Shown here in pieces: positions 14,193 through 43,830 of a stretch of 64,000 nucleotides of DNA. Made by a program: the position numbers and the translations under genes. How positions within the stretch are numbered: position 1 is the stretch's first letter; every line of letters starts with the position of its first letter. Source of the DNA: a virus (lineage: Duplodnaviria > Heunggongvirae > Uroviricota > Caudoviricetes); the IMG/VR virus record IMGVR_UViG_3300023179_000049, one strand, 5' to 3'. The notes beneath the pieces were generated by a model. The model was not told the origin of the DNA. It ran no database searches and saw only the letters and a list, made by a program, of their open reading frames with translations.

Positions 14193-16736
14193 TTAAAATT
14201 CAAAGAAATTTTTTCCGTAATTATTCTTCGGCACTTCTGACCAACCTAATGCTCCAAAGAAATCATTAAGTTTATTTTCTAAGGAAGCTTCAAAGATGCT
14301 CGTATAATCGATATATTCCTTAACGATAGAATAGATATCCATTGGATCATTAAAGCCCGTTAAAGCTAAAGTTTCGATACCTAATCGATTAGGTTTTAGG
14401 TAAGTCCATTTTATTTTATCTCCGTCACTAATAGGTGCCATAGAATTAATTTTAAAGTGCTCTAATAAGTCATTAAAATTAGCAGCAGACTTTGCATGAA
14501 TAGGCATACCTTTTGGTCTTGTTTTAAATATAGACCCAGTTTTCTTACAAGGATACTTACTTAATTCTTTAATACCAGAGATGGTCATAATATCATAAAT
14601 GTCTAATGAAGGTAATGAATCTTTAAGCTCAAATATCTTATCAACGATTTCTTGCTTTTCTGCTTTATTAAGAATATCAATAATAATGCCTGACATAAAT
14701 CCTCTAAATGCTTTTGGAAATGAAGATCTTACAACATCCAATCCTTTTACATCTAGTTTATATTCTTTTTTACCATTTGTCATTTTAGATATACTTACAC
14801 CCTTTTCAGAGATAATTTTTTGAGCATATCGCTTTTTTGCAATCCACATTGCTGTTTCAGATACATATTCTTGTTTTGTTTGGAAATAATGTTCTGTTGC
14901 ATTAAATGCGTTCTTTGCAAAATCATCGAAAGTTGAATTAATAACACTTTCACAAGCTACGGCTAATTTAAAAGTAATATCTGAACATTCTTCTTTAGTT
15001 AATTCACGTCCTTGATTTCTTTGCATCTTTTTAATTAACGGCATTGCTGAAAAGAATGCAGAATCTGTATCAATATACAATACATAATCAATACCGCTCG
15101 TTCCTAATTTTTGGTTTAGCCATTCATTAGCATAAGACGTTTTATGCATAATAACTGCTTTACCTCCTAATGTCGTCCCTTCAGCATTGTCGATATCATA
15201 AAATCTAAAACCAGCATTACCTAATACACCGTATAATGAATTAGATAAGATCTTCATAGTTAACTGACGTGAATCAAAGAAACGATACATTTTTTCATTA
15301 CCGCCTTCTCCATATTTCTTCGCAAGTTGTCGATATTCTGTTCTTTCTGTATCCCATTTTTCTAAGATAGATGGAACTAATCCTTTTGTTTTAAGATCAT
15401 ATATTACGCCAACAGCTGAGATAGAAAAGTTATTTTCTTCTAAGAATCTTCTTAGCTCCATTCCTTTCCAAGATTTAGATTTATACTTATATACATAAGT
15501 TTCATCATTCTTCATGAATTTTGTATGGTCCCAATTTTCAATCTTACATACCTTAGTTTCAGGAGAAATATTAATTGTTCTTTGAGTCGAAGGATAAAGA
15601 GCTTTTAAGTCCAAGTCAAATACCCATTCATATAATCCTGGTTTAGGATCTTTTACAAATGCTCCTTCAAATCCATTTTCATCAGAATTTTCTTCTTCAT
15701 CACTTTCTTCTCTTAAAGGTTTATTAGTTGCAATAATTCCTAAACGATTTAAGTAAGTAAGACAAGCTCCGTCCAAATATCTACTTGATGCAAATACATC
15801 TTCATAAGGAACATGACCTTTATGAGCAATGTTTCTTGCTAATGTAATAAAATCAAGCTTTTCATCTAAATCAACAACTAATTGAACGTCATTAATATTA
15901 TACTCAATAAACTTCTCTAAGTCTGTTTTATAAAGATTATCTAAATCTCCATCATACTTTATCTTTCCACGTCCTAATTCTTTTTGAGATATAAATTCTA
16001 AAGCATAAGACGGTTCTTCGTTATAAGTAAATGATCGATATAAGTACATATAATCTAAAGCAGCAACACCTCCAATATTCATTTTATCTTTACGAAAGTC
16101 TTTTGAAACTACTCCAACTGGACTTAATTGCTTTGCAACATTTGCCCCTAGAAGCTTTTTAGTTCTGTTATAAATATAAGGGACGTCAAATCCATCTATA
16201 TTCCATCCAGTTAAAATATCTGGACTGATTTCTAGATAAAGCTGAAAGAATCTGTTTAGTAAGTCTTTTTCTGTTGAAAATGCTTCGAATATATACTTAT
16301 CTGTTCTTTTATTTTTTGTAAGATGTTCTTTATCCAATAATAATACATTCCAATCTTTAGAAATATTATCATATAAAGTTATTGCTGTTACTTCGTTATC
16401 TGCATCCCATGGGGTAGAATAACCATCACCTTTTGATACTTCAATATCAAAAAACAATGTAGTTATGTTTTCTGAAATATCATCTGTATCACCGTAATTA
16501 TCGATTAAAACACGTATTTCAGGTCTTATGTCTGATTCATATATAATACCTCTTTGTTCATCTTCTTTATCCCAATTATATACTTTTTCTACACGATTAC
16601 CGTCTAAAGCAGTATGCTTTCCGTTCGGAGCTTTGATATAAGCATATTTCTTATACTTAAAATTAAGACGACCTTTTTTATCATCCCAAACAATTACTTC
16701 GTTTTGTTCTCTATTGTAATATACGTTTTTATACAT
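14193..16736 (-). CDS. family B DNA polymerase (T4 gp43-like)
   Basis: Exo I 'FFDIEVS', 'YNINDV', pol motif A 'DLDLKALYPS', motif C 'YIDTDS'; 847 aa. Confidence 0.9.
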   Translation of the reverse strand: MYKNVYYNREQNEVIVWDDKKGRLNFKYKKYAYIKAPNGKHTALDGNRVEKVYNWDKEDEQRGIIYESDIRPEIRVLIDNYGDTDDISENITTLFFDIEVSKGDGYSTPWDADNEVTAITLYDNISKDWNVLLLDKEHLTKNKRTDKYIFEAFSTEKDLLNRFFQLYLEISPDILTGWNIDGFDVPYIYNRTKKLLGANVAKQLSPVGVVSKDFRKDKMNIGGVAALDYMYLYRSFTYNEEPSYALEFISQKELGRGKIKYDGDLDNLYKTDLEKFIEYNINDVQLVVDLDEKLDFITLARNIAHKGHVPYEDVFASSRYLDGACLTYLNRLGIIATNKPLREESDEEENSDENGFEGAFVKDPKPGLYEWVFDLDLKALYPSTQRTINISPETKVCKIENWDHTKFMKNDETYVYKYKSKSWKGMELRRFLEENNFSISAVGVIYDLKTKGLVPSILEKWDTERTEYRQLAKKYGEGGNEKMYRFFDSRQLTMKILSNSLYGVLGNAGFRFYDIDNAEGTTLGGKAVIMHKTSYANEWLNQKLGTSGIDYVLYIDTDSAFFSAMPLIKKMQRNQGRELTKEECSDITFKLAVACESVINSTFDDFAKNAFNATEHYFQTKQEYVSETAMWIAKKRYAQKIISEKGVSISKMTNGKKEYKLDVKGLDVVRSSFPKAFRGFMSGIIIDILNKAEKQEIVDKIFELKDSLPSLDIYDIMTISGIKELSKYPCKKTGSIFKTRPKGMPIHAKSAANFNDLLEHFKINSMAPISDGDKIKWTYLKPNRLGIETLALTGFNDPMDIYSIVKEYIDYTSIFEASLENKLNDFFGALGWSEVPKNNYGKNFFEF

Positions 16737-25317: not shown

Positions 25318-25586
25318 TTTATTATTTCATTATATGATGTCCATCGAAATTGCTCTTCGGTATCATCAGGTAATGAAGGTACTGGCATTGCCAACATTAT
25401 CTCATTATCAACACTTCTACCGATTGCAATAAATCCATAACCTTCGCATATCTCTGGTACATACGTATCCGGTTGTAAAGAATCTGCTTTTTCTAAGATA
25501 TCAAAATCCCATTCGATACCATTGGGGTCATTATTTTCAACCCATTGTTTACTGTAATTTGCCATAACTTGTTTTTTTGTTAACAA
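25314..25586 (-). CDS. hypothetical protein
   Basis: 90-aa ORF, overlaps neighbours by 4-7 nt. Confidence 0.35.
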   Translation of the reverse strand: MLTKKQVMANYSKQWVENNDPNGIEWDFDILEKADSLQPDTYVPEICEGYGFIAIGRSVDNEIMLAMPVPSLPDDTEEQFRWTSYNEIIK

Positions 25587-26188
25587 CCGTAATGTTGTTC
25601 GTGATTAATTGTTTGATTTGTATTATTTATTTTAATATTATCTTCGTAGTATATTGAGCTGTTTTTATTATTTTCCATAAATTCAACTTGAGCTACTTTA
25701 ACTCTGCCATTAGTTTCTTCTAAAACAAATTTATTTACTTTATTATAAATATATTTTGCAAATTGTTCTGCTCCTGTAGCTGGTATGATTCTTAGTTGTA
25801 TCATTTCTTTAGAGTGCATAACTTTAAAAAATTCTACTTGTGGATCGTCCTCAGATATAATAGTCGTATGATCAAACATGTAATCCATCCATTCTTTAGG
25901 ATTCTTACCATCAATATGACCATTAGCTCGTTTCATACCTCCGAAATCCCAAACCCAATTACGTTCATCTAGTTCACCTTCAAATGTTATACGAAATGAT
26001 ACTCCATATCCATGTAAGAATCTACAATGAGTTCCTTCTGCTTTCCATTGACGAAATACACAACTGTAACCGTCAAATAATTTTGTTGATTGAAATTTTT
26101 TCATATTAGTTATTAATGCTATATTTTTTCTTGTTTTTAATGGTATTGAAGTATATTTCATCCACTCTATATAAATAGTTTGGGTCAT
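25580..26188 (-). CDS. queD: 6-carboxytetrahydropterin synthase (QueD/PTPS family)
   Basis: 'THCRFLHGYGVSF' (Cx3HGx motif of QueD/PTPS), Glu/His further downstream. Confidence 0.7.
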   Translation of the reverse strand: MTQTIYIEWMKYTSIPLKTRKNIALITNMKKFQSTKLFDGYSCVFRQWKAEGTHCRFLHGYGVSFRITFEGELDERNWVWDFGGMKRANGHIDGKNPKEWMDYMFDHTTIISEDDPQVEFFKVMHSKEMIQLRIIPATGAEQFAKYIYNKVNKFVLEETNGRVKVAQVEFMENNKNSSIYYEDNIKINNTNQTINHEQHYGC

Positions 26189-28288: not shown

Positions 28289-29608
28289 TTATACGAATAT
28301 TTTACCTTTAACTCCGGGTAACATTTGTTGTAATTGTTCTTTTGTATATTTTTCGGATATTGGTGTATCACTTAGACTAAGATCTCCTCCAATTGTTAAA
28401 TTATTAGGAAGAAATGTTATTGGTGTGTTACTTAACTCAAGTGTTCCTCTAACAGTTAAATTATCAGGTAATTTTGTTATCGGAGTCCCATTTAAATAAA
28501 GATCTCTATTAATTGTTAAATTATCAGGTAACTTTGTTATCGGAGTCCCATTTAAATAAAGATCGCCGCTTACTTTTAAAGTATCAGATAATTTTGTTAT
28601 TGGCGTATAACTTAAATAAAGGCCTCCATTAACTGTTAAATTATTAGGTAATTTTATTATTGGCGTATTGCTTAAACTAAGATTTCCATTAACTGTTAAA
28701 TTATCAGGTAATTGAGTTATTTTGGTATTAGTTAAACTTAGATTTCCTTCACTTCCGTCTTTAATATATTGTTGTATTTTCTCCTGAACATCTATCTCAT
28801 AATTTTTTATACGTCCTTTAGGTGAGTTTTTTGTAATTAAAGTATTTTCATTTTTTAATATTTTTTTATATTCTAATTTATATTTATCAGGTATTATATC
28901 AATATTTTCTCTAATTGTATCTATTACTTCATTTGGTATTAAAATTTTAGGAGTAGATACTATGTTATTTAAATAAAATAGTTCTTCTTCTACATCATAT
29001 TCAGAAAATATTGATATAAAATCCGGATTGAATAATAAATTTACATCTGTTATTGGTATACATATAATTGCAGGAATTAATCCTTTTTTTATTAATTTTA
29101 TAGTCTGCTCTTCATAATCTCCGTGATTTGTAGCATGCTCATGTGCTACTCCTAAATCAACTGAAAATGACATGAATTTTTTATTAAATTTTAGTACAAC
29201 TAAATTATTATATTCTGTATACTCTTGAGTAATTTTAGGATCGTATTTTGAAATGCTAGTAACTGAAATTGATACTCCCCTATAAACTAAATTTGTTTTT
29301 TTGTTTTTAGTTTTTCTTGGGTCTAATATTCCTGGAAATTTAGATTTTAATGGTGCTAGTATTTTAAAAAATTTTGGTAAATTACCAATCTCATTATCAG
29401 AAGTATATGCACGTAAATCATTTAAAAATTCTAACTCATCTTTAGTATTAACTTCATCTTTTGTATACCATTTTTTAAGAAACTTTTTAAGTTGTGCAGG
29501 ATCGGATACTTCAGCATTTAGATCTCCAAATAAAAACTCTCCATAGTCAAATGAAGAGCCTTTATTTAAATTTTCTTTTAGTATATCGCGCAATCTTATC
29601 ATACTCAT
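28289..29608 (-). CDS. LRR-like repeat protein (paralog of 40822..42465)
   Basis: C-terminal ~6 tandem ~21-aa repeats 'LxNTPITKLPDNLTVxGxLxL'; C-terminal tail 'YTKEQLQQMLPGVKGKIFV' homologous to the tail of the paralog. Confidence 0.6.
   Translation of the reverse strand: MSMIRLRDILKENLNKGSSFDYGEFLFGDLNAEVSDPAQLKKFLKKWYTKDEVNTKDELEFLNDLRAYTSDNEIGNLPKFFKILAPLKSKFPGILDPRKTKNKKTNLVYRGVSISVTSISKYDPKITQEYTEYNNLVVLKFNKKFMSFSVDLGVAHEHATNHGDYEEQTIKLIKKGLIPAIICIPITDVNLLFNPDFISIFSEYDVEEELFYLNNIVSTPKILIPNEVIDTIRENIDIIPDKYKLEYKKILKNENTLITKNSPKGRIKNYEIDVQEKIQQYIKDGSEGNLSLTNTKITQLPDNLTVNGNLSLSNTPIIKLPNNLTVNGGLYLSYTPITKLSDTLKVSGDLYLNGTPITKLPDNLTINRDLYLNGTPITKLPDNLTVRGTLELSNTPITFLPNNLTIGGDLSLSDTPISEKYTKEQLQQMLPGVKGKIFV
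28348..28740. repeat. tandem ~63-bp coding repeats (LRR-like units), two near-identical adjacent copies
   Basis: 'gttaaattatcaggtaa(t/c)tttgttatcggagtcccatttaaataaagatc' repeated nearly exactly at ~28441-28500 and ~28501-28560. Confidence 0.7.
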
Positions 29609-30701: not shown

Positions 30702-32558
30702 TTAATGTATCTCACAATTATTTCCTGCACAGGCTAGCTCACCACTTAAATCTGTATCATCTACTAATTCTACTACTTGAGTCAAATCAACATTAACTAA
30801 TGATTCCATCAATTCATTATATCTTTCTTCTGTAATATCTTCAAATGGAGCTTGAATATATGTATGGTCTGCATAAGGAAGAACTGATAATCCGTTATAA
30901 CAATTTTTATTCTCCCACATCCATTCTCCAACGCTTTCCCATTCATTATCTTTAATAGATACTGTAGCAGATATATTATGAGTATTTTGTCCTGTTCTGT
31001 GACCTGGCTTAATCCAATTAGTATAGAACCATTTAACACGACTTAATAAATCTAATGCTGATTCTGTCCTTAAAATAGAACCTTCTGGAGCTTTTTGTGG
31101 TACTGAAATAACTGCAGTATCATGAGGTCTAAAGTATTCATCTTCTAGAAGCTCTGGATGATTTATTAATAAATGCGTATATAAAGATTCATTCTTTCCA
31201 ATACGCATTCTTCTAATATAATAATCATTGTGCCAAGCATGAATTCCACTTGATGTTCCTAATACTAATGATGATGTTCCGCTAGGTTTAATTGTAGTTG
31301 TTCTAGCAGCTTTATTAATACCAATAAGATTGGCTACTCTTTCGTTTTCTTCTTTAACAATTTCAGCAGCTTCATTCATATCATATTGTTGAGCTTTACC
31401 AGAACCTACTCCTGTAATACCAACTCCAATTAAAGCTTCTTTTTCTGTCGTTCTTTGCCAAATTGGTCTTAAGTAATGAAAATCTGTATACCCTGCTTGA
31501 AGTGTTCCTATAAATGCTGCGACTTTAACTCTATTATTTAAATCTTCTTGTGATTCAATATTACTTACATTTACTTCACATAAGTTACAAAACTGAAATG
31601 GACGTAATGCAATTTCGCAACACGGATTAGTTCCCCAATCTTTATCATTGTTTAAATAAATTCCAGGTTCTCCTGCTCCAGAAGCTTTAATCTTGTCCCA
31701 TATTGACATAAAGAATTCTTTAGTAACGCGATTACGTAATAATACTGCTGAGTTATTTGCTCTTCCTCTTTGTGGATTTAGTTCCCACCAATTACCTGTT
31801 TTAGATGAAATCATATCATCATCATCTGCGCTAAATAATGAAATTAAAGCAGCTCTTCTAATACCACCTGCTAATACTGCGTCTGCAATATGGCATACAA
31901 TATCATGCGTTTCTATAGGAGTTAACTTTTCTCCGTCAGATTTAGTATCTAAAATACCTTGAATCTTAACAATACATTCTTTTAATGGTTGAGGACCTGG
32001 AGCTTTACCACCAGAAGTTACAAGTAATGCTCCTTTTGGTCTAATATCAGAAAAATCAAATAAAATACTTGAACCGCCTTCAAAATAAGACTTCATTAAT
32101 ACTTTAATTGCATCTGCCCATCCTTCAATAGAATCGCCAATTAAAAATCGTCTGTGCTTTACAGGATTTGGTTTTCTTATTTCCGGTAATTTTTCTACGT
32201 GATGTTTTTGAACTGAATATCCGACTCCTGTGCCGCCTAATAATAAGAACATTGTTTCGCCAAACGCTCTGTAATCATCTATTGGAAGATAAGCGCAGTT
32301 ATAAACTCTGTTTGGAGAAAGCTCAATTGATTTACCTCCGAATTGTAAACTTCTCATTGAAGGAAGTACTTTTTTGTCATAAACCAATTGATATGCATTT
32401 TCTATTTCAGCTTCCATATGCGGATACTTTCTAATATGCATTTCTTTGTTTCTTGTTACAATTTGCCACCAATCTTCTCGGCGACTTAACTCACTTTTAT
32501 ATTTTGCATACTTACTGTATACAGTAATATCGGAGAGTATCTTGTTTGAAATTTTCAT
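30702..32558 (-). CDS. ribonucleotide reductase, class II-like (NrdJ-like) catalytic subunit
   Basis: Active-site 'NPCCEIAL' (NPCGEI-type), 'FQFCNLCEVN', C-terminal Cys pair 'ACAGNNCEIH'; 618 aa single chain. Confidence 0.65.
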   Translation of the reverse strand: MKISNKILSDITVYSKYAKYKSELSRREDWWQIVTRNKEMHIRKYPHMEAEIENAYQLVYDKKVLPSMRSLQFGGKSIELSPNRVYNCAYLPIDDYRAFGETMFLLLGGTGVGYSVQKHHVEKLPEIRKPNPVKHRRFLIGDSIEGWADAIKVLMKSYFEGGSSILFDFSDIRPKGALLVTSGGKAPGPQPLKECIVKIQGILDTKSDGEKLTPIETHDIVCHIADAVLAGGIRRAALISLFSADDDDMISSKTGNWWELNPQRGRANNSAVLLRNRVTKEFFMSIWDKIKASGAGEPGIYLNNDKDWGTNPCCEIALRPFQFCNLCEVNVSNIESQEDLNNRVKVAAFIGTLQAGYTDFHYLRPIWQRTTEKEALIGVGITGVGSGKAQQYDMNEAAEIVKEENERVANLIGINKAARTTTIKPSGTSSLVLGTSSGIHAWHNDYYIRRMRIGKNESLYTHLLINHPELLEDEYFRPHDTAVISVPQKAPEGSILRTESALDLLSRVKWFYTNWIKPGHRTGQNTHNISATVSIKDNEWESVGEWMWENKNCYNGLSVLPYADHTYIQAPFEDITEERYNELMESLVNVDLTQVVELVDDTDLSGELACAGNNCEIH

Positions 32559-32651
32559 TGTTGTTTGTTAATTAAATTTTATGTGTTGTGAATTGATGTT
32601 AAACATAACCGCCCTTATTTGGGTATTAATAAATATTGTTTAAGCCACATT

Positions 32652-33818
32652 TTATCCCAAAGAATTTCCTAAAAGTTCTGAATATTTTGTAGCTAATGAT
32701 TTTCGTGTTACTGAGTCTTCATCCATTTCTGTTTTTGTTTCTCTTCCTTTAATAGATGATTCTTGATACATATCAATTCTACCATTTGACATATTAAGTT
32801 TAGTTGGTAATGTTAATCCATCTGGCCCAAAACGATTCTTAATAAAATGAACTCTTCCCGTACCTGCAATCTTATCTGTTGTTTTTCTTGCTAATGAAAT
32901 AATAACATCTCCGATCATAATCTTACTAAATGAAGAAGCTACTTGATCTGATGTAATAATATCAGATTCTACGGAAGATCTATTTGCTTGAGATGCTGTA
33001 ACAACTGGTATTTGATATTCACCGGCTAATCCTCTTAAATCTTCATATGTAGTTTCTAATTCTTCATGAAGTTTTTCTTTTGCTTTTGCTGAACGTAATA
33101 AATCTGCATAATCTACAATAACAATATCAGGTTTTACTCCTTGCATTAACATTTTATCTAAATGAGCTTTTAATGTTGTTACAGATGCTGTTTTTGTCGG
33201 AAAAAACTTTAAATACAATTGTCCTTTTAGTTTTGATAATTCATGCTCAACTTCTTCTAAGTTATATTTTAAATTTGCAGTCGCTATTCCAGTAACTACC
33301 GAATCATATCTTTGAGCTACATAAGGCTCTGATAATTCCATTGTATAATGGACTACCGTTTTTCCTTGTCTTAATAAATGAGCTCCTACATTAATCATTG
33401 AAGTAGAGTTATGTGATAAAATACCATTACTATAATAACAATTAACCTCATCTACTGTAATATCATATAAAGATTCATATTTATCTAAATATTTCAACTC
33501 TTTTAGATATGTCATACCTGATTCAGTTTCTATAATATCAGAAGGCTTAATATTTAATACTTTAGTCCACCCATCTTGTGTCTTTAATAAATGATGTGAT
33601 GAACATTGTAAAGTTTTATTATTTCCGAAATAACATGTTACTTTTTGTTGAATTTCTGTTCTAAATAAAGATGTTATACTTTTATATCCATATGGGGTAA
33701 GTACTTTAACATGTATATCAGGTATAACTTCTATATTAGGAGTATTTGGTATTTGATATTTATCAAATAATTCTTTAATAGTTATAGTTTCTTGTTTATT
33801 TCGTTTAATTAATTTCAT
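32652..33818 (-). CDS. gp41/DnaB-like helicase, C-terminal part, preceded by intein C-terminal segment
   Basis: '...NGILSHN|STSMIN' intein end (HN + Ser+1); extein has DnaB-family RecA-domain motifs ('IVDYADLL', 'ASQANR', 'HFIKNRFG'); upstream residues 20-101 resemble Hint blocks A/B without Cys1. Confidence 0.7.
   Translation of the reverse strand: MKLIKRNKQETITIKELFDKYQIPNTPNIEVIPDIHVKVLTPYGYKSITSLFRTEIQQKVTCYFGNNKTLQCSSHHLLKTQDGWTKVLNIKPSDIIETESGMTYLKELKYLDKYESLYDITVDEVNCYYSNGILSHNSTSMINVGAHLLRQGKTVVHYTMELSEPYVAQRYDSVVTGIATANLKYNLEEVEHELSKLKGQLYLKFFPTKTASVTTLKAHLDKMLMQGVKPDIVIVDYADLLRSAKAKEKLHEELETTYEDLRGLAGEYQIPVVTASQANRSSVESDIITSDQVASSFSKIMIGDVIISLARKTTDKIAGTGRVHFIKNRFGPDGLTLPTKLNMSNGRIDMYQESSIKGRETKTEMDEDSVTRKSLATKYSELLGNSLG
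33408..33515 (-). other. candidate split-intein C-terminal half (IntC, 36 aa from internal Met)
   Basis: MTYLKELKYLDKYESLYDITVDEVNCYYSNGILSHN: block F/G pattern ending HN, followed by Ser. Confidence 0.5.
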
Positions 33819-34710
33819 ATATAAATTTTATGACTTGATCTAATATAATATCTTTTTTGGATTTCCAATCCGATTCCCATATAATAAAAATAGAATAATT
33901 AAGGGCTTCTAAGTCTTTACATCGAGAGGCATCTTTATTCCATTGGTCATCAACAAGATACATTCCTCCTGGTTTTTTAATATAATCTCCGGACTTATAT
34001 ATTTTTGGATTACAATGCCAATAATCTCCATTTATTTCAATAATTTTATTATCAACCTGAATATCTACAATATATAAAGTATTAGATATCTTTTTATTAA
34101 ATTTAAATACTTTATCTTTGCAAAGAGATTTAATATTTTCCTGAATTAATCTTTCTAATTTAGATACACATCCGGTATTATTATGTTGATCACCAAAATT
34201 TTTATCTAACCATGCTTCTTTACCTACTAATGCAATTTCATTTAATTTATTTCTTCTTGTAGCATTACTTTGCTTTATTTTAGCTTCTTTAGTATGTGAA
34301 TGACCTAAGAACTTTTTTGACTTAGCACTGGCTATTGATTGATATTCTTTTAATTTATTACTAGCTTCTTCATGAGACAATCCACTATTTAAATAATATT
34401 CAATGGATCTTTTAGAGCCCTTTTTACTTTTTAATTTCGAAGCTTCTTGTATTTTTAAAATTTCTGCAGGGTCTGATATATTACGTTTAGAATAATATTC
34501 GTCACAAAATTTATTTCTTTCTCTTTGATTAATTGACACTTGCAATTTAGATTCTTCTTCAGTATATCCTAGAGCTAGCCAATATTCTATTCTATTTTTA
34601 GTAATAGGGGGTGTTCCATTAGAATTAAATTTTTTCTTTTGTTCTTCCCATTTACGAAGACCTTCTACTTCGCCGTATTTTTTAATCCAAGCTTGTTTTA
34701 CAGATGCCAT
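33805..34710 (-). CDS. free-standing homing endonuclease, Vsr/DUF559-like nuclease domain
   Basis: C-terminal 'IIEINGDYWHCN' nuclease motif; N-terminal repeated 'EYWLALGYTEEES'/'EYYLNSGLSHEEAS' helix modules; lies between the two helicase halves. Confidence 0.6.
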   Translation of the reverse strand: MASVKQAWIKKYGEVEGLRKWEEQKKKFNSNGTPPITKNRIEYWLALGYTEEESKLQVSINQRERNKFCDEYYSKRNISDPAEILKIQEASKLKSKKGSKRSIEYYLNSGLSHEEASNKLKEYQSIASAKSKKFLGHSHTKEAKIKQSNATRRNKLNEIALVGKEAWLDKNFGDQHNNTGCVSKLERLIQENIKSLCKDKVFKFNKKISNTLYIVDIQVDNKIIEINGDYWHCNPKIYKSGDYIKKPGGMYLVDDQWNKDASRCKDLEALNYSIFIIWESDWKSKKDIILDQVIKFIYEIN

Positions 34711-34752
34711 ATTCTTTATTATAAATATATAAATAATAAAATTTTTATATAT

Positions 34753-35541
34753 TTATTTTTCCTGGACCTGGACCTGTAAGAGGTTAATTACTTCATATCC
34801 TTGAATTTTATGATTATCTATTTCATATATGGTAAATGGATCAATCCAAAATATAAAAGGTATTCCTTGAGAATTAATCATCTCAATACCCAACTCTTCA
34901 TACTGTATATCTATAGATGTATTAGGCCCTATACATTTACCAGCACCTGGTCCCGCTACAAATATAATAAGTTCTCCTTTACCAATACCGCCATCAACTA
35001 ATTCATTAAATGCTGTCCAAGGCGTAGGTAAAGTTAGTCTAGCAGATTCTTCATAACGAAGCTTAACATCTTTTAAATATTCTAATCCAATATCTTGATT
35101 AGCCCCTGCTTTCATCGCAGTATCAATTTTCTTTTTGATATTATCATATTCTCCTGATTGTAATAATTCAACAGACTCGATAATGGCTTTTTTGATGCAT
35201 TGGTTTTTACAGAAGTTAACGCATTCTGTTTTAACGAAATCTAAATCTTCTGCTTCAACATATCTTAATATATCTTTTAAAGATTCTACAATAGACATTT
35301 TTAAAGGTTCAGATGTAAGTTCTAATGCCTTTACTTTAAATACTTCTAATGTAGGTACTGTTTTATATTCTGGATAGTATTTCATAATAATGTCTACAAT
35401 CCAAATATTAGCTTCAGAATCAAAATATTCAGGTATTAAAATATCGAATATTTGTTGAAGAAATGTTTTATCTTTTATAAGGGCCGCAATTATTTTTAAT
35501 TGAAAGGTCTTTCCGTACTGCGTAAATCTATCTTGACTCAT
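34753..35541 (-). CDS. gp41/DnaB-like helicase, N-terminal part, ending in intein N-terminal segment
   Basis: Walker A 'FVAGPGAGK' immediately followed by 'CIGPNTSIDI' (Hint block A, Cys1 at 34933-34935); ORF terminates 60 aa into the intein. Confidence 0.7.
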   Translation of the reverse strand: MSQDRFTQYGKTFQLKIIAALIKDKTFLQQIFDILIPEYFDSEANIWIVDIIMKYYPEYKTVPTLEVFKVKALELTSEPLKMSIVESLKDILRYVEAEDLDFVKTECVNFCKNQCIKKAIIESVELLQSGEYDNIKKKIDTAMKAGANQDIGLEYLKDVKLRYEESARLTLPTPWTAFNELVDGGIGKGELIIFVAGPGAGKCIGPNTSIDIQYEELGIEMINSQGIPFIFWIDPFTIYEIDNHKIQGYEVINLLQVQVQEK

Positions 35542-35572: not shown

Positions 35573-36628
35573 TCAAGAATTATTATTTGTTCCTAGCGCA
35601 AATATATTTAATTGATTAAAGATGTTTAAAAATGTAATAGGATCGTTAATATAGTTATATCCTTTATCCGTAGCTAATATTTGTATAAATTCGTTTTTAT
35701 TAATTAATGATACTGCTTCGTTAAACTTATCAATTAAGAATAGTTTATGCGTACCTGATATATCTACATTATGTAGTTGCATTAATTTATAATTACGTGT
35801 TATAATGTCTTTATTGTTAATGATTTTTTTGTATAATTTATCATCTTGTTTATCTTCACAAAAAGATAAAAATTCTTCTAAACCAACTACCCTATTTTCT
35901 TGCAAAATAGGCATCTTTCCTACGGTCTTAGGGCCGATTCCAGGCACTCCGGGTATATTATCTCCATCGTCTCCAATAAACACTTTATAGAGGTGATAAT
36001 TCTCTGCAGGCACTCCAAATCTTACTTTAACATCTTCTAATTTATATAAACGCTTTTCTACTGGTCTATATACATTAACTTTCTCATTTACAAGTTGTAG
36101 ATAATCTTTGTCGTCTGAAACTATCATTACATTATTACTTCTTGTATTAAGAATATCTGTAGTTAAATACGCTACCATATCATCTGCTTCAATATGGTCT
36201 GCAGTAATTACTGATACTGGTAAGCAACGTAAGTATTGTATTAATCTTACAAATTGATGCTTCATCGAAGCACTTTCATCTTCTGCGTTTTCAAATATCT
36301 CTGCTCTGTTAAAAGATTTAGGAGCTAAACGATTGCCTTTATATTCAGGATATAGCTCTTTTCTTTTTTTAGAGCCTCCTTTACCATCAAACGTAATAAT
36401 AATTCTTGTAGGTTTGAATGTTTTAACATAAGAAGCTAGTGACTTTAAGAATCCTAAAGACCCTCCTAAATGCTCTCCATTTTCATTCATTACTGGGTTG
36501 GCTTGGAAACATCTCAAGTAAAAATTAGTCCCGTCCACTAACATAACCCTGGAGTTAATATTTAGTGAAACGGGACTTTCTTTTTCTTGTTGAATCTCTG
36601 CTAATAACTCAACAAATCTATTTAACAT
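35573..36628 (-). CDS. RNase H / 5'-3' flap endonuclease (T4 rnh-like)
   Basis: 'LVDGTNFYLRCF', 'ITFDGKGGSKKRKELYPEYKGNR', 'IEADDMVAYL', 'IVSDDKDYLQL' match 5' nuclease metal-binding motifs. Confidence 0.8.
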   Translation of the reverse strand: MLNRFVELLAEIQQEKESPVSLNINSRVMLVDGTNFYLRCFQANPVMNENGEHLGGSLGFLKSLASYVKTFKPTRIIITFDGKGGSKKRKELYPEYKGNRLAPKSFNRAEIFENAEDESASMKHQFVRLIQYLRCLPVSVITADHIEADDMVAYLTTDILNTRSNNVMIVSDDKDYLQLVNEKVNVYRPVEKRLYKLEDVKVRFGVPAENYHLYKVFIGDDGDNIPGVPGIGPKTVGKMPILQENRVVGLEEFLSFCEDKQDDKLYKKIINNKDIITRNYKLMQLHNVDISGTHKLFLIDKFNEAVSLINKNEFIQILATDKGYNYINDPITFLNIFNQLNIFALGTNNNS

Positions 36629-36634
36629 AACTTA

Positions 36635-38275
<1,641 letters not shown>

Positions 38276-39430
38276 TTAAAAATCATCTCCGCCATCTGGC
38301 GTCGTAACTATTTGAATTCCTTCATCTGGGTTTGCAGGGTCATACTTCATAATATATTCTTCACAAAGCTTTTCATATACTTGCTTTTTCAATCTAGGAT
38401 CTTCGGCAAACTTTGTTAGTATATTTGCTGATGTAAATACTACTTCTTCTCCTGTTTCTGTATCTACATAATCATAATAAGCTCCACGCTTCTTAACTAA
38501 TTTATGCTTTGTTAATTCGTCAATCCAACTTGGCGCTGAATCAATACCAGAATCAAAATAAATATCATATTCTACTTCTCTGCTTGGAGGCCCTAAACGA
38601 TTCTTCTTAATCTTTAACTTTGTTTTAGCTCCAATTACAGTTCCGTCAGATTTCTTAATCATTCCTAAATTATATAATGATAATCTAACTGATGCATGGA
38701 ATCCGACTGCTTTACCACCAGATGTTTGAGTCTTTTCACCAAAGCCCATAACACCTACTTTATCACGTAATTGATTTGTTAAGATTAAGCATACTTTTTG
38801 ACGACCAATCATATTAGTAATCTTACGCATTGCTTTTGATAATACAATAGCTTTTGTAGTTGCATAACCATCTTTTTCGTAATCTGCTTCTTGCTCCACT
38901 TTTGTTGTAGCACCCATAATAGAATCAATAGCAATACATACTAATCTATTTTTGTCAGCATTTCTTACTTTCTCGATAATAGTTTCTACAATTGCAAATG
39001 CATCTTCTATAGTTTCTACTGGAGCATAAATCATTTTACTTAAATCCATACCTAGCATTTCAAAGAATTCATTTGCTACGGCATTTTCTGTATCAATATA
39101 AATTGATAATCCTCCTTTACGTTGACATTGAGCTAATATATTTGCTGTTAGTAAAGATTTACCAGCAGCACTTTCGCCCATAATCTCTATAATACGACCT
39201 ACTGGCAATCCGCCATATGGTCTATTTGATATTGCTAAATCTGCAATATCATTTCCCGTTGTTATCCAATCTGTTACATTACTAGGTGAATCAGCATCTT
39301 TATCTAAAAAATACGCTACTTTCATGTTAGTTTCTTTAAACTTTGCATTAAGCGTATCTGCTAATAATGATGCCAAATCTTCATGCATTGCACCAGATGA
39401 TATTCCGTCATCCGTTTTCTTTTTTGCCAT
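38276..39430 (-). CDS. uvsX: RecA-family recombinase (UvsX-like)
   Basis: Walker A 'GESAAGKSLL'; 'LTNQLRDKVGVMGFGEKTQTSGGKAVGFHASVRLSL' matches the RecA L2/ATP-sensing region; acidic C-terminus; adjacent to gp32-like and helicase genes. Confidence 0.8.
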   Translation of the reverse strand: MAKKKTDDGISSGAMHEDLASLLADTLNAKFKETNMKVAYFLDKDADSPSNVTDWITTGNDIADLAISNRPYGGLPVGRIIEIMGESAAGKSLLTANILAQCQRKGGLSIYIDTENAVANEFFEMLGMDLSKMIYAPVETIEDAFAIVETIIEKVRNADKNRLVCIAIDSIMGATTKVEQEADYEKDGYATTKAIVLSKAMRKITNMIGRQKVCLILTNQLRDKVGVMGFGEKTQTSGGKAVGFHASVRLSLYNLGMIKKSDGTVIGAKTKLKIKKNRLGPPSREVEYDIYFDSGIDSAPSWIDELTKHKLVKKRGAYYDYVDTETGEEVVFTSANILTKFAEDPRLKKQVYEKLCEEYIMKYDPANPDEGIQIVTTPDGGDDF

Positions 39431-39497: not shown

Positions 39498-40289
39498 TTA
39501 GTTTTTAAATAAATCGTCAAATGCACTAGAAATATCCTCTACTGATTTTGTTTCAGCGGGCTTTGTAGGTGTCGACACTTTAGCTTCTGTACCTGTAGAT
39601 GCTGTTCCTTCTTGAACTCCTTCGGTATCGCGATTTAACCAATTGGTCAATACTACCTTTAAATCTTCATATGAAGGTTCTTTAAAGATTTCTGTTAAAT
39701 TTTTCTGACCAGTTGCAATCTTTGTGATAATTTCCTTATCTGTATGTACCGGAGTTTGATTTGGTTTAATACGAATAGAAGTTTCTGGAAAATCTTTTCC
39801 CGTTTGTTCTTTAGTTTTAAATTCTACTGTAATGTCTCTTCCATTAACTGGGTCTGTAATATCACCGTAATCTGGGTCTGCAATAAATGCTAATAATTCT
39901 TGGTATACTGTTTTACCAAATCCCCAATACTTAACACCTTCATGTTCTTTTCCACGAATAACGATTGGAGCGTATACGCGCATTTTAGGTTCGATCTTTT
40001 TACCTAATTTCCATTCTTCTTTTTTTCCTGTAGATTGAAGCTTTTCTGCGAACTCAACTACTGGATCTGGTTTGCCAAATGTAGCTGGAGATAAATACTG
40101 CTTATTTCCAAATTCATAATGGAAATAAAGTTCATTAAATGGATTGTCTTTGTTGAATTGATAAGGTACAATTCTAACTACTTGTGTACCTGGTTCTGGT
40201 TTCCATAAGGTGTCTTGTCTTTCACCTTTTCCTGTGTTTTTTTGCAAATCGCCTAGTTTCGCGCGAATTGCGTCTAAATTAATCGCCAT
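39498..40289 (-). CDS. single-stranded DNA-binding protein (T4 gp32-like)
   Basis: N-terminal 'LWKPEPGTQVVRIVP' resembles gp32 '[20 protein letters not shown]'; acidic C-terminal tail 'SAFDDLFKN'. Confidence 0.55.
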   Translation of the reverse strand: MAINLDAIRAKLGDLQKNTGKGERQDTLWKPEPGTQVVRIVPYQFNKDNPFNELYFHYEFGNKQYLSPATFGKPDPVVEFAEKLQSTGKKEEWKLGKKIEPKMRVYAPIVIRGKEHEGVKYWGFGKTVYQELLAFIADPDYGDITDPVNGRDITVEFKTKEQTGKDFPETSIRIKPNQTPVHTDKEIITKIATGQKNLTEIFKEPSYEDLKVVLTNWLNRDTEGVQEGTASTGTEAKVSTPTKPAETKSVEDISSAFDDLFKN

Positions 40290-40383: not shown

Positions 40384-40770
40384 TTATTTTATATGAATTA
40401 TTTTGTATATTTGCAATTCATGTAAAATTAATTTCTTATCTGTTACTAAAATAGCCGTATTTGAATAATCTTCCCAATTCACTTTATAATTCTTATCTAA
40501 TATATTATTATTAAGTGATTTTATCAAGAAATTTAATCCATTAATGGTATAAAGCGTATTAGTTTCTTTTCTTCTGTGTATTGAAATAGTGTTATCTAAC
40601 AAATCATTAAGATTGCCAGACTCTATATTGTACGTGCAAGCCAACTCAGGATTCTCGCTCATTTGCAGAACAAAAATTTTACCGTTAAGTATATTATAAT
40701 TACTTACGATATTATCAATTGTTGGTTGTAAATCATTCTCTAAAGTGAATGTGCAAAGTAAACGTATCAC
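40384..40770 (-). CDS. hypothetical protein
   Basis: 128-aa ORF. Confidence 0.4.
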   Translation of the reverse strand: MIRLLCTFTLENDLQPTIDNIVSNYNILNGKIFVLQMSENPELACTYNIESGNLNDLLDNTISIHRRKETNTLYTINGLNFLIKSLNNNILDKNYKVNWEDYSNTAILVTDKKLILHELQIYKIIHIK

Positions 40771-40821: not shown

Positions 40822-42465
40822 TTATAGTCGTATGTACCCATTAACCCATGGGAGTAATTTTTCTAACTGCTCTTCAGAATAGTTTGCTGCTAGTGGCGTA
40901 TCCCATATCATAAAATTTCCGTTAACGGTTAAATTTTTAGGTACTTCCATAAGATTTGTATTACGTGCATTTAATCCTTTACCCACGGATAAATTATCTG
41001 GCAAAGATGTAATTGCTGTATATGATATATTTAAGTTATTGCCCACGGATAAATTATCTGGTAAAGATGTAATTTTTGTGCCGCTTAAATCTAAATCTCC
41101 TCCTACTTTTATATTAGCTGGTATAAAATTAATTTTAGACCCACATTGCAAATCTTGACCTACAATTAAATTATTTGGTAAAGATGTAATTTTTGTCCCG
41201 CTCAAATATAAATTACCATTTACTGTTAAATTATTTGGCAACGATGTAATAGGAGTATTTTCTAAAAATAAATTACCATTTATTGTTAAATTGTCAGGTA
41301 AAGATTTAATTTTAGTATCTGAAAGTATTAAATCATGTTTAACTATTAAATCTGCTGGCCATGGATATGTAAAGGTACTTTCTTTTGGTTTATAATCTAT
41401 ACTTGCTAAATAATCTGCTCTAGATTGTCTATACGGTATACTTTTATTAGGTAATCCATCAAATATTTTATATGGAATATTTAAATTTTGAAGTACTAAA
41501 GACATTTTTTTTATTTTTGCTGTATTTGATTTAGATTTTTTGTTATTTGTAAAAATATCAATTCGTTTAAGATACTGCATAAAATAAAAATTTTTACCAT
41601 TAACTACAATCTGTTCCTCTCCTAAATCTTCCTCGTCCCAAGAAAATGGTCTAATTTTATATTTATTGCTAATCTTATCACCATCTAGTTCCAATCTAAC
41701 AATAGGAACTTCACTCATATCATTATTTCTATCTTCAGATTCCTCTCCTCCAAAAATAGTGTCCATATTTGGTCTTATAGACGTTGATATTTGATTTTCA
41801 TGGTTAGGCATTAAATATTGAGTTTTTAATATTTTATCTAAATTTGTTATAGGTGTGAAATGGTATAAATTTCCTCGTTGCTTAGCTTCATTTAATACTC
41901 CTTTTAAAATGCTAGATAATTTCATAGGATCTATTTTTCTTTTTATTTGTGTTTTTAACCAATTAAAATATTTTTGATTAGATACAAAATATTTTGTTGC
42001 ATTACCAACATCACCATAATGTAATGTTATACTTCCATCAGAATTTATCGTAAAGTCAGCATCTCCGAACATATCTTTCGGGGCTATTTTAAGTAACATT
42101 TTAAGAATAAAAGAATTTGGAGTTGTAAATCCTAGCTTATGCATCATTGGTAAAATATCTTTTGAAACCATTCCCCAAATAGGTTTGTTTAAAGATTTTA
42201 ATTCATTAAATCCATTTAAAATACTTCGAATATTTCCTCCTATTACAGTTAATTTATATATTCCATTTCCTATAGGTCTTGCAGCAACATATCCTTGTTG
42301 ATCTCCAAAAAACTGCCAATCCATAGCCTTATCAAAAAATGTATGTGATTTCCACGATGTACCGACACTTTTTTCATAAGAATTTTTATATAAATTGTAT
42401 ATATTGTCCAGTTCTTCACTCGTGAGGTCTTCCAAGTCAAATACTTCAAATATTTTATTATTCAT
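40822..42465 (-). CDS. LRR-like repeat protein (paralog of 28289..29608) with distinct N-terminal domain
   Basis: C-terminal ~7 tandem ~21-aa repeats 'TKITSLPDNLSVGxNLxL'; conserved tail 'YSEEQLEKLLPWVNGYIRL'. Confidence 0.6.
   Translation of the reverse strand: MNNKIFEVFDLEDLTSEELDNIYNLYKNSYEKSVGTSWKSHTFFDKAMDWQFFGDQQGYVAARPIGNGIYKLTVIGGNIRSILNGFNELKSLNKPIWGMVSKDILPMMHKLGFTTPNSFILKMLLKIAPKDMFGDADFTINSDGSITLHYGDVGNATKYFVSNQKYFNWLKTQIKRKIDPMKLSSILKGVLNEAKQRGNLYHFTPITNLDKILKTQYLMPNHENQISTSIRPNMDTIFGGEESEDRNNDMSEVPIVRLELDGDKISNKYKIRPFSWDEEDLGEEQIVVNGKNFYFMQYLKRIDIFTNNKKSKSNTAKIKKMSLVLQNLNIPYKIFDGLPNKSIPYRQSRADYLASIDYKPKESTFTYPWPADLIVKHDLILSDTKIKSLPDNLTINGNLFLENTPITSLPNNLTVNGNLYLSGTKITSLPNNLIVGQDLQCGSKINFIPANIKVGGDLDLSGTKITSLPDNLSVGNNLNISYTAITSLPDNLSVGKGLNARNTNLMEVPKNLTVNGNFMIWDTPLAANYSEEQLEKLLPWVNGYIRL
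40890..41310. repeat. tandem ~63-bp coding repeats (LRR-like units)
   Basis: Repeated 'ggataaattatctggtaaagatgtaat' units on plus strand. Confidence 0.65.
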
Positions 42466-42477
42466 ATAAATAAATAT

Positions 42478-43830
42478 CTACATACTTACATTTTTTAAGT
42501 TATTATAGTCGTAACCGGCTTGCACTTTTACTGGATATTTTCCGTTACATTCTAATATTCTTTGACATTGCTTAATATACTTACCTCCATCATCTTTATG
42601 GAAGTCGATCAATAAAGAATCATAGGTATATAATATCATCTTACTCTTAAATCCTTTGTTAAAGCTCATTAAAGTATCTAATATTCCCATAGTTTCTTCC
42701 ATCTCTAATGATTGAATAAGATAGTTAAGAAGCTTCTGAGAATTCATTTCAGTAAAGAATGTATTTTTTAATGTTCTTTTATATATTGGAGTTTCTAAAT
42801 ATTTTTGATCTTTATAAAGTTTCCAGTTAATTTTTGTAAAATCATCTACTAATTTAAAAAATGGAATTTCTAAAAACTCTTTTTCAATACCTCCGTATAA
42901 TAATTTAAAGGTTATGCCCTTACTTTGATCATATTCTTCCGGAGTTAATTCTTCTTTTCCAAAATATTGACGTCCTAAATGTTCGTGCATATTTACTTTG
43001 CCTGGAAATTGATATCCTAGTAATTCTCCTAATAATCTAATATGATAAGCATCATAATCAAACTGCAGTAAAAATCCATCTTTACCAAACCGAGACTTAA
43101 ATGATTTTCTTACTCCCGTTTCTTTATTTAGTGCCGCATAATTTACAGAATCAAATCTATTTGAAGGTCTTCCTGTTGTTGTATAAGGATTATATTCTGT
43201 ATATACAAAGTTATTTGTTATTGTTACATTTGGAAATGTTTCTTTAAGTATATCAGAATTTACATACATACCATTTATTTCTATATGATGTAAAGTTTTA
43301 ACTACATTATTATATTTTAAAAATGTGTCTGATATTGTAAATGCTTTAAATTCTTCTTTATATTCTTTAATAAGATTGCCAAACTTTTCGTGATGTTTTA
43401 CAATTGGTATAAGATGATTAAGATTTTTTAAGTTAGAGTATTTTTGATTAAAGTAATCATGCACGGAAGTATCAAACTCCTCGATATCTATAGATTTATT
43501 TGTTAAGAAGTATATTACCATATGAGCATCATATATATGATCACATGTAATCTTACTTAATAAATATTTAAGATTTAAAACAAAGCATTCTTTACTAGAA
43601 CATAATAAATCACTTAATAATGATTCTTTTATTGAAAGTGCCTCGGAATGATTAAAACTTACAATACATTCTTTGTTTATTGTAAGATCATATAAATAAA
43701 GTAATGAAAGCTCATTTATACTGTAGTGAAGAAACGGGTCTTTTAAAACCGGGGCAACAAAGATACGATGTGATTTAATCTCTGTTATAAGGTCAAATAA
43801 TTCGGTTTCGGTTTCTACAATTGGTAGCAT
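42478..43830 (-). CDS. family A DNA polymerase-like protein (polymerase domain only, divergent)
   Basis: Motif A 'LLQFDYDAYHIRLL' (DYSQIELR-like), motif B 'DQSKGITFKLLYGG' (K...F..YG), motif C 'ILYTYDSLLIDF' (HDE position reads YDS); 450 aa, no obvious exo domain. Confidence 0.55.
   Translation of the reverse strand: MLPIVETETELFDLITEIKSHRIFVAPVLKDPFLHYSINELSLLYLYDLTINKECIVSFNHSEALSIKESLLSDLLCSSKECFVLNLKYLLSKITCDHIYDAHMVIYFLTNKSIDIEEFDTSVHDYFNQKYSNLKNLNHLIPIVKHHEKFGNLIKEYKEEFKAFTISDTFLKYNNVVKTLHHIEINGMYVNSDILKETFPNVTITNNFVYTEYNPYTTTGRPSNRFDSVNYAALNKETGVRKSFKSRFGKDGFLLQFDYDAYHIRLLGELLGYQFPGKVNMHEHLGRQYFGKEELTPEEYDQSKGITFKLLYGGIEKEFLEIPFFKLVDDFTKINWKLYKDQKYLETPIYKRTLKNTFFTEMNSQKLLNYLIQSLEMEETMGILDTLMSFNKGFKSKMILYTYDSLLIDFHKDDGGKYIKQCQRILECNGKYPVKVQAGYDYNNLKNVSM

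Follow-up and report, generated by a model that had tools for sequence, protein, structure and literature searches.

We assign a 450-residue ORF in a 64,000-nt stretch of viral DNA (hereafter, the window) with high confidence to divPolA1, a family of divergent family A DNA polymerases. On balance, we favor reading its product as a Klenow-derived, active auxiliary DNA polymerase that operates beside a family B polymerase (PolB). The protein is a fresh member of a known family and not a discovery, but it is a real and odd enzyme. The gene is located as follows.

42478..43830, minus strand: divPolA1-type family A DNA polymerase gene, whole ORF, 450 aa, ATG start.

The divPolA1 family was described by computation in 2024. 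That study (PMC11348598) reports 14 genomes; the immuto-like phage group has genomes of about 155-190 kb, and divPolA1 occurs in addition to a "regular" polymerase from family A, B or C. The hallmarks given there are retained palm catalytic residues, a truncated thumb and a conserved order of replication genes downstream. BLASTP of the window protein against the divPolA1 of Flavobacterium phage immuto (gene 1) gave E=3e-64 with 32% identity over 397 columns. The homology spans residues 44-435 of 450, and the two proteins are of similar length (450 and 441 aa). The best tblastn matches were likewise immuto phages, in which the product is named "DNA polymerase family A". The immuto protein carries matching motif variants, DFDGYH, EEYAKAK..F..IYG and YTYDA; its thumb is also truncated, its exonuclease is inactivated, a regular polymerase is encoded alongside, and gene order runs parallel genome-wide. 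The window protein differs in coming from a separate, very abundant metagenomic clade (about 32% identical), and the regular polymerase is a PolA in immuto but a PolB in the window. Clustering placed the family at >5000 clusters at 90% identity and about 700-1000 at 50% (685 with E<=1e-30), nearly all of them 420-480 aa long; the cluster look-up returned "hypothetical protein" as the sole name and no accessions. Relatives with 92-98% nucleotide identity lie on contigs of 196.9 and 197.6 kb, and the phage collection contained no near-identical DNA. Relative to the published account, our analysis adds three points: the signature of the pocket, a family membership running to thousands, and a 128-aa neighbor gene that is conserved; the text of PMC11348598 available to us discusses neither the E710H/R754Y/H881Y/E883S signature nor this neighbor.

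A preliminary description of this DNA had placed a second, minimal and divergent family A polymerase beside a gp43-like PolB, and our results support that view. The ORF is present on the minus strand with an ATG start, and the four Pol I motif strings that had been quoted all occur in the order given, including the pre-motif-B region NMHEHLGRQYFG (residues 280-291) and DQSKGITFKLLYGG, which lies within residues 297-314 (nt 42889-42942). The Pfam DNA_pol_A profile, proposed as a check at that time, bore out the motif matches as real, yet the score fell below the gathering threshold (PF00476, 29.5 bits versus a 34.3-bit cut-off, E=4.7e-7) and not all Klenow residues are kept. Despite the sub-threshold score, homology to family A polymerases is secure from profile and structure comparisons; a BFVD fold search matched only ordinary, longer viral PolAs. 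Residue correspondence was set against authentic E. coli polA, for which phmmer, hmmsearch and hhalign were concordant. The motifs of the polymerase domain, with Klenow equivalents, are listed here.

43156..43194, minus strand: Motif 2, YNPYTTTGRPSNR; R221 corresponds to R668, a primer-terminus contact (three concordant alignments).
43030..43062, minus strand: Motif A, FDYDAYHIRLL, residues 257-267; D258 corresponds to the metal ligand D705, and H263 replaces the steric gate E710.
42889..42942, minus strand: Motif B / O-helix, PEEYDQSKGITFKLLYGG; Y300 is at the R754 position, with K304, F308 and Y312 corresponding to K758, F762 and Y766.
42697..42735, minus strand: Motif 6, KLLNYLIQSLEME; N369 and Q373 correspond to N845 and Q849 (template/minor-groove contacts), and E376 is family-specific.
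42601..42633, minus strand: Motif C, LYTYDSLLIDF, residues 400-410; Y403 replaces H881, D404 corresponds to the metal ligand D882, and S405 replaces E883.

As had been suspected by eye, several positions invariant in Klenow are replaced, namely E710, R754, H881 and E883, leaving the canonical PolA motif set (D..Y....E, R...K...F/Y...YG, HDE) incomplete. The reading of the motif A Glu as His and of the motif C HDE as YDS proved correct, both in all three alignments. For motif B, the Arg is indeed gone, but the Gln offered in its place (Gln302) occupies the S756 position, and R754 aligns with Tyr300.

Conservation was counted across 147 diverse relatives with a median identity of 34%. The two metal ligands D258 and D404 are retained in 147/147, as are R221, K304, Q373 and the family-specific E376, while Y312 (144/147), F308 (140/147) and N369 (139/147) vary in few. 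The unusual residues are similarly stable: H263 occurs in 145/147 and Y403 in 146/147, at residue 300 the counts are Y (107), I/L/V (30), R (5) and K (2), and at residue 405 S (122) outnumbers A (20) and G (5). The gene is under purifying selection, with a dN/dS of 0.02-0.10, and all key residues are unchanged in close relatives. Invariant catalytic residues, fixed odd residues and low dN/dS together point to an enzyme that is constrained and probably active; on sequence evidence, we consider an active polymerase quite probable.

By Klenow standards, the four second-shell replacements might severely impair catalysis or shift the substrate. A catalytically dead polymerase fold kept as a DNA-binding or scaffold protein, an option raised in the preliminary description, would accommodate the loss of all four residues together with the missing thumb, the predicted-dead exonuclease and the Pfam score under the gathering threshold. 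This reading is highly unlikely and goes unsupported by our counts, as D705, D882 and K758 are present in all 147 relatives despite a median identity of 34%, and R668, Q849, F762 and Y766 are also invariant or nearly so under a dN/dS of 0.02-0.10. A scaffold would have no reason to preserve exactly the residues of the chemistry, and because the replacement residues are themselves fixed, a working pocket is indicated.

Outside the palm and fingers, the protein has undergone two further changes, in the thumb and in the exonuclease-fold domain.

43198..43329, minus strand: PolA motif 1 (IE-NG, E184/G187) followed by a vestigial thumb, residues 168-211, from profile alignment to Klenow 525-557.
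43426..43830, minus strand: N-terminal 3'-5' exonuclease-fold domain, residues ~1-135, predicted inactive, from a fold match.

Motif 1 is well conserved (E184 in 144/147 relatives, G187 in 143/147), but only 19 residues separate it (EING, 184-187) from the palm strand (VYTEY), compared with 108 in Klenow. The segment from G187 to Y213 has a family median of 27 residues, and the predicted model places a single short helix (residues 192-198) at the thumb site. The thumb is thus essentially absent, with about 89 residues deleted. A smaller trim lies between the equivalents of Y766 and D882, which are 92 residues apart versus 116 in Klenow. It is the short segment between motif 1 and the palm that accounts for the 450-aa length. 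The earlier view that the ORF is too short for a 3'-5' exonuclease domain was wrong, as an exonuclease fold was found at the N-terminus and is predicted to be inactive. Here the fold match is the sole support for the domain; hhalign to the Klenow exonuclease was not significant (E=0.5), and a forced global hhalign misaligned the region. On the weak domain alignment (E=0.5), the acids of ExoI and ExoII give way to P, L and L, with D355 falling on P27 and D424 on L90 and no conserved acid nearby. The candidate helix for the D501 equivalent carries E148, 75% conserved. Still under strong selection with its thumb gone, its proofreading predicted lost and four "essential" second-shell residues replaced, the family tests in nature the limits to which a Pol I-type enzyme can shrink.

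Relative to the E. coli Klenow fragment (PDB 1D9D/1KFS), then, the window protein is about 89 thumb residues short, has its ExoI/ExoII carboxylates replaced (as predicted), and carries E710->H, Q708->A, I709->Y, R754->Y, H881->Y and E883->S. Other divergent PolAs share parts of this pattern. As described in PMC11348598, divPolA2 of barbaviruses likewise accompanies a regular PolB as a second, divergent PolA, with no conventional thumb and no active proofreading. [quoted passage not shown] The bacterial APEX 1/2 PolAs (PMC10201439) structurally keep an inactive 3'-5' exonuclease domain and have an altered ("broken") thumb, but one that is bent and not deleted. Among the 19 PolA clusters of that study, the portion available to us contains no matching subfamily.

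The gene heads a replication and recombination module, and the regular polymerase is encoded elsewhere in the window.

40384..40770, minus strand: 128-aa conserved protein, candidate partner subunit; its ancestral site is directly downstream of divPolA1.
39498..40289, minus strand: gp32-type ssDNA-binding protein, module partner (Pfam gp32 E=1.4e-15, phrog_1192).
38276..39430, minus strand: UvsX/RecA recombinase, module partner (Pfam RecA E=1.7e-49, phrog_97).
35573..36628, minus strand: 5'-3' exonuclease / flap endonuclease of the Pol I N-terminal-domain type, a separate gene (phrog_107 E=5.7e-38).
32652..35541, minus strand: DnaB-type replicative helicase, two ORFs split by an inserted 301-aa ORF at 33805-34710 (phrog_19).
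14193..16736, minus strand: gp43-like family B DNA polymerase, the "regular" polymerase (phrog_262 E=1.5e-181; Pfam DNA_pol_B, exo1).

The module order in the window is polymerase, (insertion), 128-aa protein, gp32, UvsX, GroEL, 5'-3' exonuclease, DnaB and RNR, and in immuto it is polymerase, two ORFs, SSB, RecA, 5'-3' exonuclease, DnaB and RNR. The window departs from immuto in having GroEL inside the module and a 547-aa LRR ORF between the polymerase and the small protein. In all loci examined, a small conserved protein gene lies immediately 3' of the polymerase, and the position of gp32 is unchanged in immuto, Mel-JY01 and further loci. The 5'-3' exonuclease, which the window protein does not carry as a fused domain, is a module gene whose orthologues contain Pfam 5_3_exonuc_N and 5_3_exonuc. 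Positions 159-366 and 367-600 of the phrog_19 profile fall on separate DnaB ORFs; the orthologue at a related locus is intact at 453 aa. The jumbo-phage record LR756508 was considered as an independent test of linkage and set aside, as it carries the whole same module. Because all loci examined come from one viral lineage, the gene order may be inherited and not functionally enforced.

We take PolB to be the main replicase because its exonuclease and polymerase motifs are intact (FDIE96, NIDGFD179, YNIND279, DLKALYP376, YIDTDS554) and clamp-loader subunits of the gp44/62 type are present (8602-9543 and 7854-8375). In our reading, divPolA1 retains the two-metal catalytic core and the primer and template contacts, lacks about 89 thumb residues and, as predicted, the carboxylates for proofreading, and has a systematically remodeled nucleotide-binding pocket (E710->His, R754->Tyr, H881->Tyr, E883->Ser). 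Such an enzyme would presumably be a DNA-templated DNA polymerase, distributive and without proofreading, and bulk replication of the ~197-kb genome would be left to PolB and its clamp, with divPolA1 as an auxiliary. It could carry out short-patch synthesis, filling the gaps that primer removal leaves, in concert with the separate flap endonuclease as a "split Pol I". Extension of UvsX/gp32 recombination intermediates may be an alternative or additional job. We propose this gap-filling or recombination role tentatively, at slightly less than even odds. To our knowledge, Okazaki fragment maturation in T4-type phages does not normally need a Pol I-like enzyme, which counts against our best explanation.

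PMC11348598 leans instead toward a direct role in replication, since the replication context is conserved even as the regular polymerase varies between families A, B and C. In a rival reading, divPolA1 would be the main phage replicase; the 128-aa protein, gp32 and DnaB would offset the lack of a thumb, and the interchangeable PolB, PolA or PolC would serve elsewhere. The catalytic core is invariant, and the gene stays at the head of the module throughout the lineage as the regular polymerase changes family (PMC11348598). Moreover, the regular polymerase sits among nucleotide-metabolism, modification and chaperonin genes in both the window and immuto. Nevertheless, a genome of ~197 kb would then be copied by an enzyme predicted to lack both proofreading and a thumb, although the window PolB has intact motifs and a gp44/62-type clamp loader nearby. 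divPolA1 also diverges faster than its module neighbors, at 30-46% identity compared with 42-60% for gp32, UvsX and DnaB in the same loci. We regard this reading as unlikely. The role of divPolA1 bears on why this lineage always keeps the enzyme yet swaps its main polymerase (A, B, C).

The preliminary description had also suggested a polymerase for modified bases; for 7-deazaguanine, such an enzyme would insert modified dGTP analogues or copy fully modified templates. The remodeled nucleotide pocket and the FolE, QueD and QueE encoded in the window would agree with this idea, but in guanine, position 7 points into the major groove and away from the changed residues. Immuto, a divPolA1 carrier, has all dG replaced by fdPreQ1, and this complete replacement is credited to the DNA transglycosylase DpdA3 (PMC10516641). 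Campylobacter phages of the CP220 type carry DpdA3 and lack a divPolA1 match; CP220 and Cellulophaga phiST are fully modified (PMC10516641), yet neither group has such a match. Conversely, Mel-JY01 and LR756508 encode divPolA1 with no DpdA3 match. As divPolA1 and DpdA3 are not co-distributed, a 7-deazaguanine polymerase is unsupported and, in our judgment, most improbable. Within the window, tblastn found no match to immuto DpdA3, QueC or QueF, Pfam profiles revealed neither TGT nor QueC in the unannotated ORFs, and no DpdA was found.

Finally, the replaced steric-gate Glu and the YDS of motif C prompt the proposal of a changed chemistry, either a two-subunit primase-polymerase formed with the 128-aa protein or the use of ribonucleotides or synthesis of RNA. 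The pocket replacements are fixed (E710->H in 145/147, R754->Y or aliphatic, H881->Y in 146/147, E883->S/A/G in 147/147), and a Ser after the motif C Asp occurs in single-subunit RNA polymerases, which speaks for altered chemistry. Even so, we judge it distinctly unlikely. The nearest structural neighbors are not RNA polymerases with an RNAP-type N-terminal or promoter-binding domain, and the reverse-transcriptase-like activity suggested earlier found no support. A role as a primase substitute is weakened by the DnaG primase of immuto; no primase was found in the 64-kb window, which is uninformative either way for a ~197-kb genome.

A precedent for the two-subunit form is CCPol-MP of SCCmec, in which a truncated PolA and a small downstream partner give de novo priming (PMC7581432, PMC10061031). 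As at every divPolA1 locus examined, a reduced A-family polymerase gene is followed at once by a gene for a small conserved protein, with a helicase gene near. CCPol, however, is missing the bulk of the exonuclease domain but retains E710, and the OB fold of MP contrasts with the ferredoxin-like fold of the 128-aa protein, so the comparison is one of analogy only. It is improbable that divPolA1 and the 128-aa protein form a two-subunit enzyme in which the latter replaces the thumb in trans or delivers an ssDNA template, with the remodeled pocket and the invariant Glu376 conferring an activity not seen in ordinary PolA enzymes. In recombination-dependent replication, that activity might consist in making primers de novo or in using ribonucleotides. 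The role of divPolA1 bears on whether a partner protein serves a thumbless PolA, and the small size and altered pocket may be useful for enzyme engineering. If true, the two-subunit reading would make this the second independent PolA-based primase-polymerase after SCCmec CCPol-MP, and one that is very abundant in aquatic phages.

The 450-aa protein is a new member of divPolA1, a divergent family A polymerase family that has been described computationally and is biochemically uncharacterised. Its best phage matches are the immuto phages of Flavobacterium (32% identity, E=3e-64, residues 44-435). The family was named in 'DNA polymerase swapping in Caudoviricetes bacteriophages' (Virol J 2024, PMC11348598). 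According to that paper, divPolA1 occurs on top of a regular family A, B or C polymerase in 14 immuto-like genomes, 155-190 kb in size. It keeps the palm catalytic residues, its thumb is truncated and its exonuclease aspartates are replaced, replication genes follow downstream in a conserved arrangement, and the protein was judged probably polymerase-active and involved in replication. The window protein shares the additional regular polymerase, the palm residues, the thumb truncation and the downstream gene arrangement, and its exonuclease aspartates are probably replaced too. No cluster in the available part of the PolA reclassification (PMC10201439) corresponds to it, divPolA1 is mentioned in no paper later than PMC11348598, NCBIfam holds no model for the family, and public copies of the protein carry only the name 'hypothetical protein'. 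As the family is already described, interest in this member is modest; the remaining value lies in a fixed pocket signature, the family's abundance and a conserved small neighbour gene.

The window comes from a T4-like myovirus; its GC content is ~30%, and nearly all ORFs of at least 90 aa are on the minus strand. It encodes the following:

7854-8375 and 8602-9543, clamp-loader subunits
14193-16736, minus strand, gp43-like PolB (the regular polymerase)
17239-17865, 23271-24104 and 25580-26188, minus strand, FolE, QueE and QueD, near PolB
30702-32558, minus strand, class II (B12-type) ribonucleotide reductase (RNR), single gene, directly after DnaB
32652-35541, minus strand, DnaB helicase, split
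35573-36628, minus strand, 5'-3' exonuclease
36635-38251, minus strand, GroEL
38276-39430, minus strand, UvsX
39498-40289, minus strand, gp32
40384-40770, minus strand, 128-aa protein, no family assignment
40822-42465, minus strand, 547-aa leucine-rich-repeat ORF (insertion at ~40834-42469)
42478-43830, minus strand, divPolA1-type polymerase ORF, ATG start, 450 aa

A dUTPase and an ATP-dependent ligase are also encoded, and baseplate and sheath genes lie upstream in the window. The order polymerase, small protein, gp32/SSB, UvsX/RecA, 5'-3' exonuclease, DnaB, RNR recurs in immuto, in Microcystis phage Mel-JY01, in the 484-kb jumbo-phage record LR756508 and in metagenomic contigs at ~45% identity. 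Wider synteny common to the window and immuto comprises sheath, tape measure and divPolA1, then the Que genes, the regular polymerase and chaperonin. The phage collection contains no DNA closely similar to the window, and metagenomic contigs of 196.9-197.6 kb carry the module at 92-98% nucleotide identity.

At the sequence level, the similarity to PolA is real, which confirms the second family A polymerase-like ORF of the preliminary description. phrog_17 'DNA polymerase' matches residues 137-441 (E=4.4e-11), phmmer matches the protein directly to Klenow, a family profile of 37 members matches Klenow over residues 185-438 (E=8.5e-8), and hhalign returns 95.7% probability for authentic E. coli polA (L003:2967-5753). 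Pfam DNA_pol_A, the profile proposed as a check, matches at E=4.7e-7, although its score (29.5 bits) is under the 34.3-bit gathering cut-off. A BFVD fold search with the predicted model matched only ordinary, longer viral PolAs.

Three independent alignments (phmmer, family-profile search and hhalign) agree on the correspondence with Klenow. Kept are R668 (R221), D705 (D258), H734 (H282), K758 (K304), F762 (F308), Y766 (Y312), N845 (N369), Q849 (Q373) and D882 (D404), while E710, R754, H881 and E883 are replaced by H263, Y300, Y403 and S405. The earlier readings of the motif A Glu as His and of motif C HDE as YDS therefore hold. The motif B Arg is likewise replaced, by Tyr300 and not by the Gln originally named; Gln302 lies two positions off and aligns with S756. 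Apart from two corrections, that observation is largely right; its interpretation is partly so. The thumb is nearly missing: 19 residues separate the motif 1 glycine (EING, 184-187) from the palm strand VYTEY, versus 108 in Klenow, and the predicted model places one short helix there.

The family is both large and uniform. Matches to the protein at E<=1e-3 number at least 5005 clusters at 90% identity; at 50% identity 1622 clusters match, 685 of them at E<=1e-30. The 145 full-length representatives analysed (>=400 aa) span 420-479 aa. Conservation was scored across 147 sequences whose median identity to the query is 34%. Equivalents of R668, D705, K758, Q849 and D882 are 100% conserved, and those of F762, Y766 and N845 are kept in at least 139/147. 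The substitutions are likewise fixed: 145/147 have His at E710, 146/147 have Tyr at H881, and all 147 have one of Ser, Ala and Gly at E883. R754 is replaced by Tyr in 107 and by aliphatic residues in 30, with a basic residue (Arg or Lys) in just 7. An invariant Glu376, three positions past the Q849 equivalent, is specific to the family. Values of dN/dS between near-identical relatives are 0.02-0.10, with the key residues unchanged. Judged from these alignments, the pattern is that of a working, remodelled active site. It argues against a catalytically dead derivative, an option raised earlier, since a dead scaffold would not hold precisely these positions constant. The exonuclease-fold domain (43426-43830, minus strand), predicted to be inactive, keeps four near-invariant polar residues: H35 (138/147), H61 (140/147), D/E63 (146/147) and D101 (143/147), which may form a metal or ligand site or a domain interface.

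Because ExoI, ExoII, ExoIII and polymerase motifs A and C are intact in PolB and clamp-loader genes are present, we infer that PolB is probably the processive, proofreading replicase of the window. The wording of PMC11348598 leaves open that divPolA1 is the main replicase, as the divPolA1 context is conserved while the regular polymerase is swapped. Against this reading, divPolA1 is without fidelity and processivity features and diverges faster than gp32, UvsX and DnaB of the same loci. From what Klenow thumb-deletion studies reportedly show, a PolA with neither thumb nor proofreading should be distributive and error-prone, which would suit short-patch synthesis. Its fixed neighbours are SSB, recombinase and a Pol I-type flap endonuclease that has a gene of its own; they suggest a short-patch, auxiliary role. 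divPolA1 could act within a 'split Pol I', filling gaps after primer removal, or extend UvsX/gp32 strand-invasion intermediates, and the two are not mutually exclusive. The identity, fold, residues and context themselves are shown, whereas such a role in gap filling or recombination is a credible proposal that falls somewhat short of probable.

A link to 7-deazaguanine DNA modification, suggested previously as a modified-base role, is tempting: immuto, with the full gene set, has every dG replaced by fdPreQ1 (PMC10516641). Yet divPolA1 is not co-distributed with DpdA3, the DNA transglycosylase of the pathway. CP220-type phages bear DpdA3 with no divPolA1 match, whereas Mel-JY01 and LR756508 bear divPolA1 with no DpdA3 match. 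The authors credit the modification to DpdA3 (PMC10516641), and the pathway genes of the window are limited to FolE, QueD and QueE. DpdA, QueC and QueF were not detectable within the 64-kb window; the remainder of the pathway may lie beyond it or be too divergent for detection.

The 128-aa gene always adjoins divPolA1 and precedes gp32 in the loci examined, directly after the polymerase in the metagenomic loci L007 and L009 and also following it in L010, L011, Mel-JY01 and LR756508. Its product is conserved more strongly than the polymerase (48% identity to immuto gene 2, versus 32% for divPolA1), shares 40% identity with its Mel-JY01 counterpart, has 2343 homologues and yields a confident ferredoxin-like predicted model. 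It may be a partner subunit of divPolA1, a lead that goes beyond the available text of PMC11348598. By analogy, the pair could resemble SCCmec CCPol-MP, in which a truncated PolA and a small partner encoded downstream form a de novo primase-polymerase (PMC7581432, PMC10061031). We consider this improbable, as MP has an OB fold, CCPol retains the E710 that is His here, and immuto encodes DnaG. In the window, a 1.64-kb insertion with the 547-aa ORF parts the two genes; it is absent in L007 and L009, and three other ORFs occupy the site in the related locus L008, marking the junction as a hotspot for variable cargo. Leucine-rich repeats of ~20 residues (..ITSLPDNLxVxGNL..) make up the C-terminal half of the 547-aa ORF, which weakly resembles the LRR regions of SlrP and XopAC. 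A 439-aa ORF (28289-29608, minus strand) has internal repeats with weak DUF5649 similarity, and an ORF inserted beside the polymerase in L008 (8480-9210) shares 64-76% DNA identity with it in many registers; the two belong to a repeat-protein family moving around these genomes.

Full-length GroEL lies inside the replication module, between UvsX and the 5'-3' exonuclease, whereas immuto GroES and GroEL adjoin the regular polymerase; PMC11348598 calls chaperonins constant companions of that polymerase in this phage group. Where the window has its class II RNR, L007, L008, L009 and L011 carry the small and large subunits of a class I enzyme, a switch of RNR class between closely related genomes; similarity to these relatives, otherwise 92-98% nucleotide-identical, ends at ~32587-32652. 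Window DnaB comprises two ORFs (262 and 388 aa) parted by a 301-aa ORF (33805-34710) with a weak REase_MTES_1575 nuclease domain, while its L007 orthologue is undivided (453 aa). The C-terminal piece has a faint intein-splicing match in relatives, and RecA is similarly split in L008 and L010. Elements of the homing-endonuclease or intein type seem frequent in the replication module.
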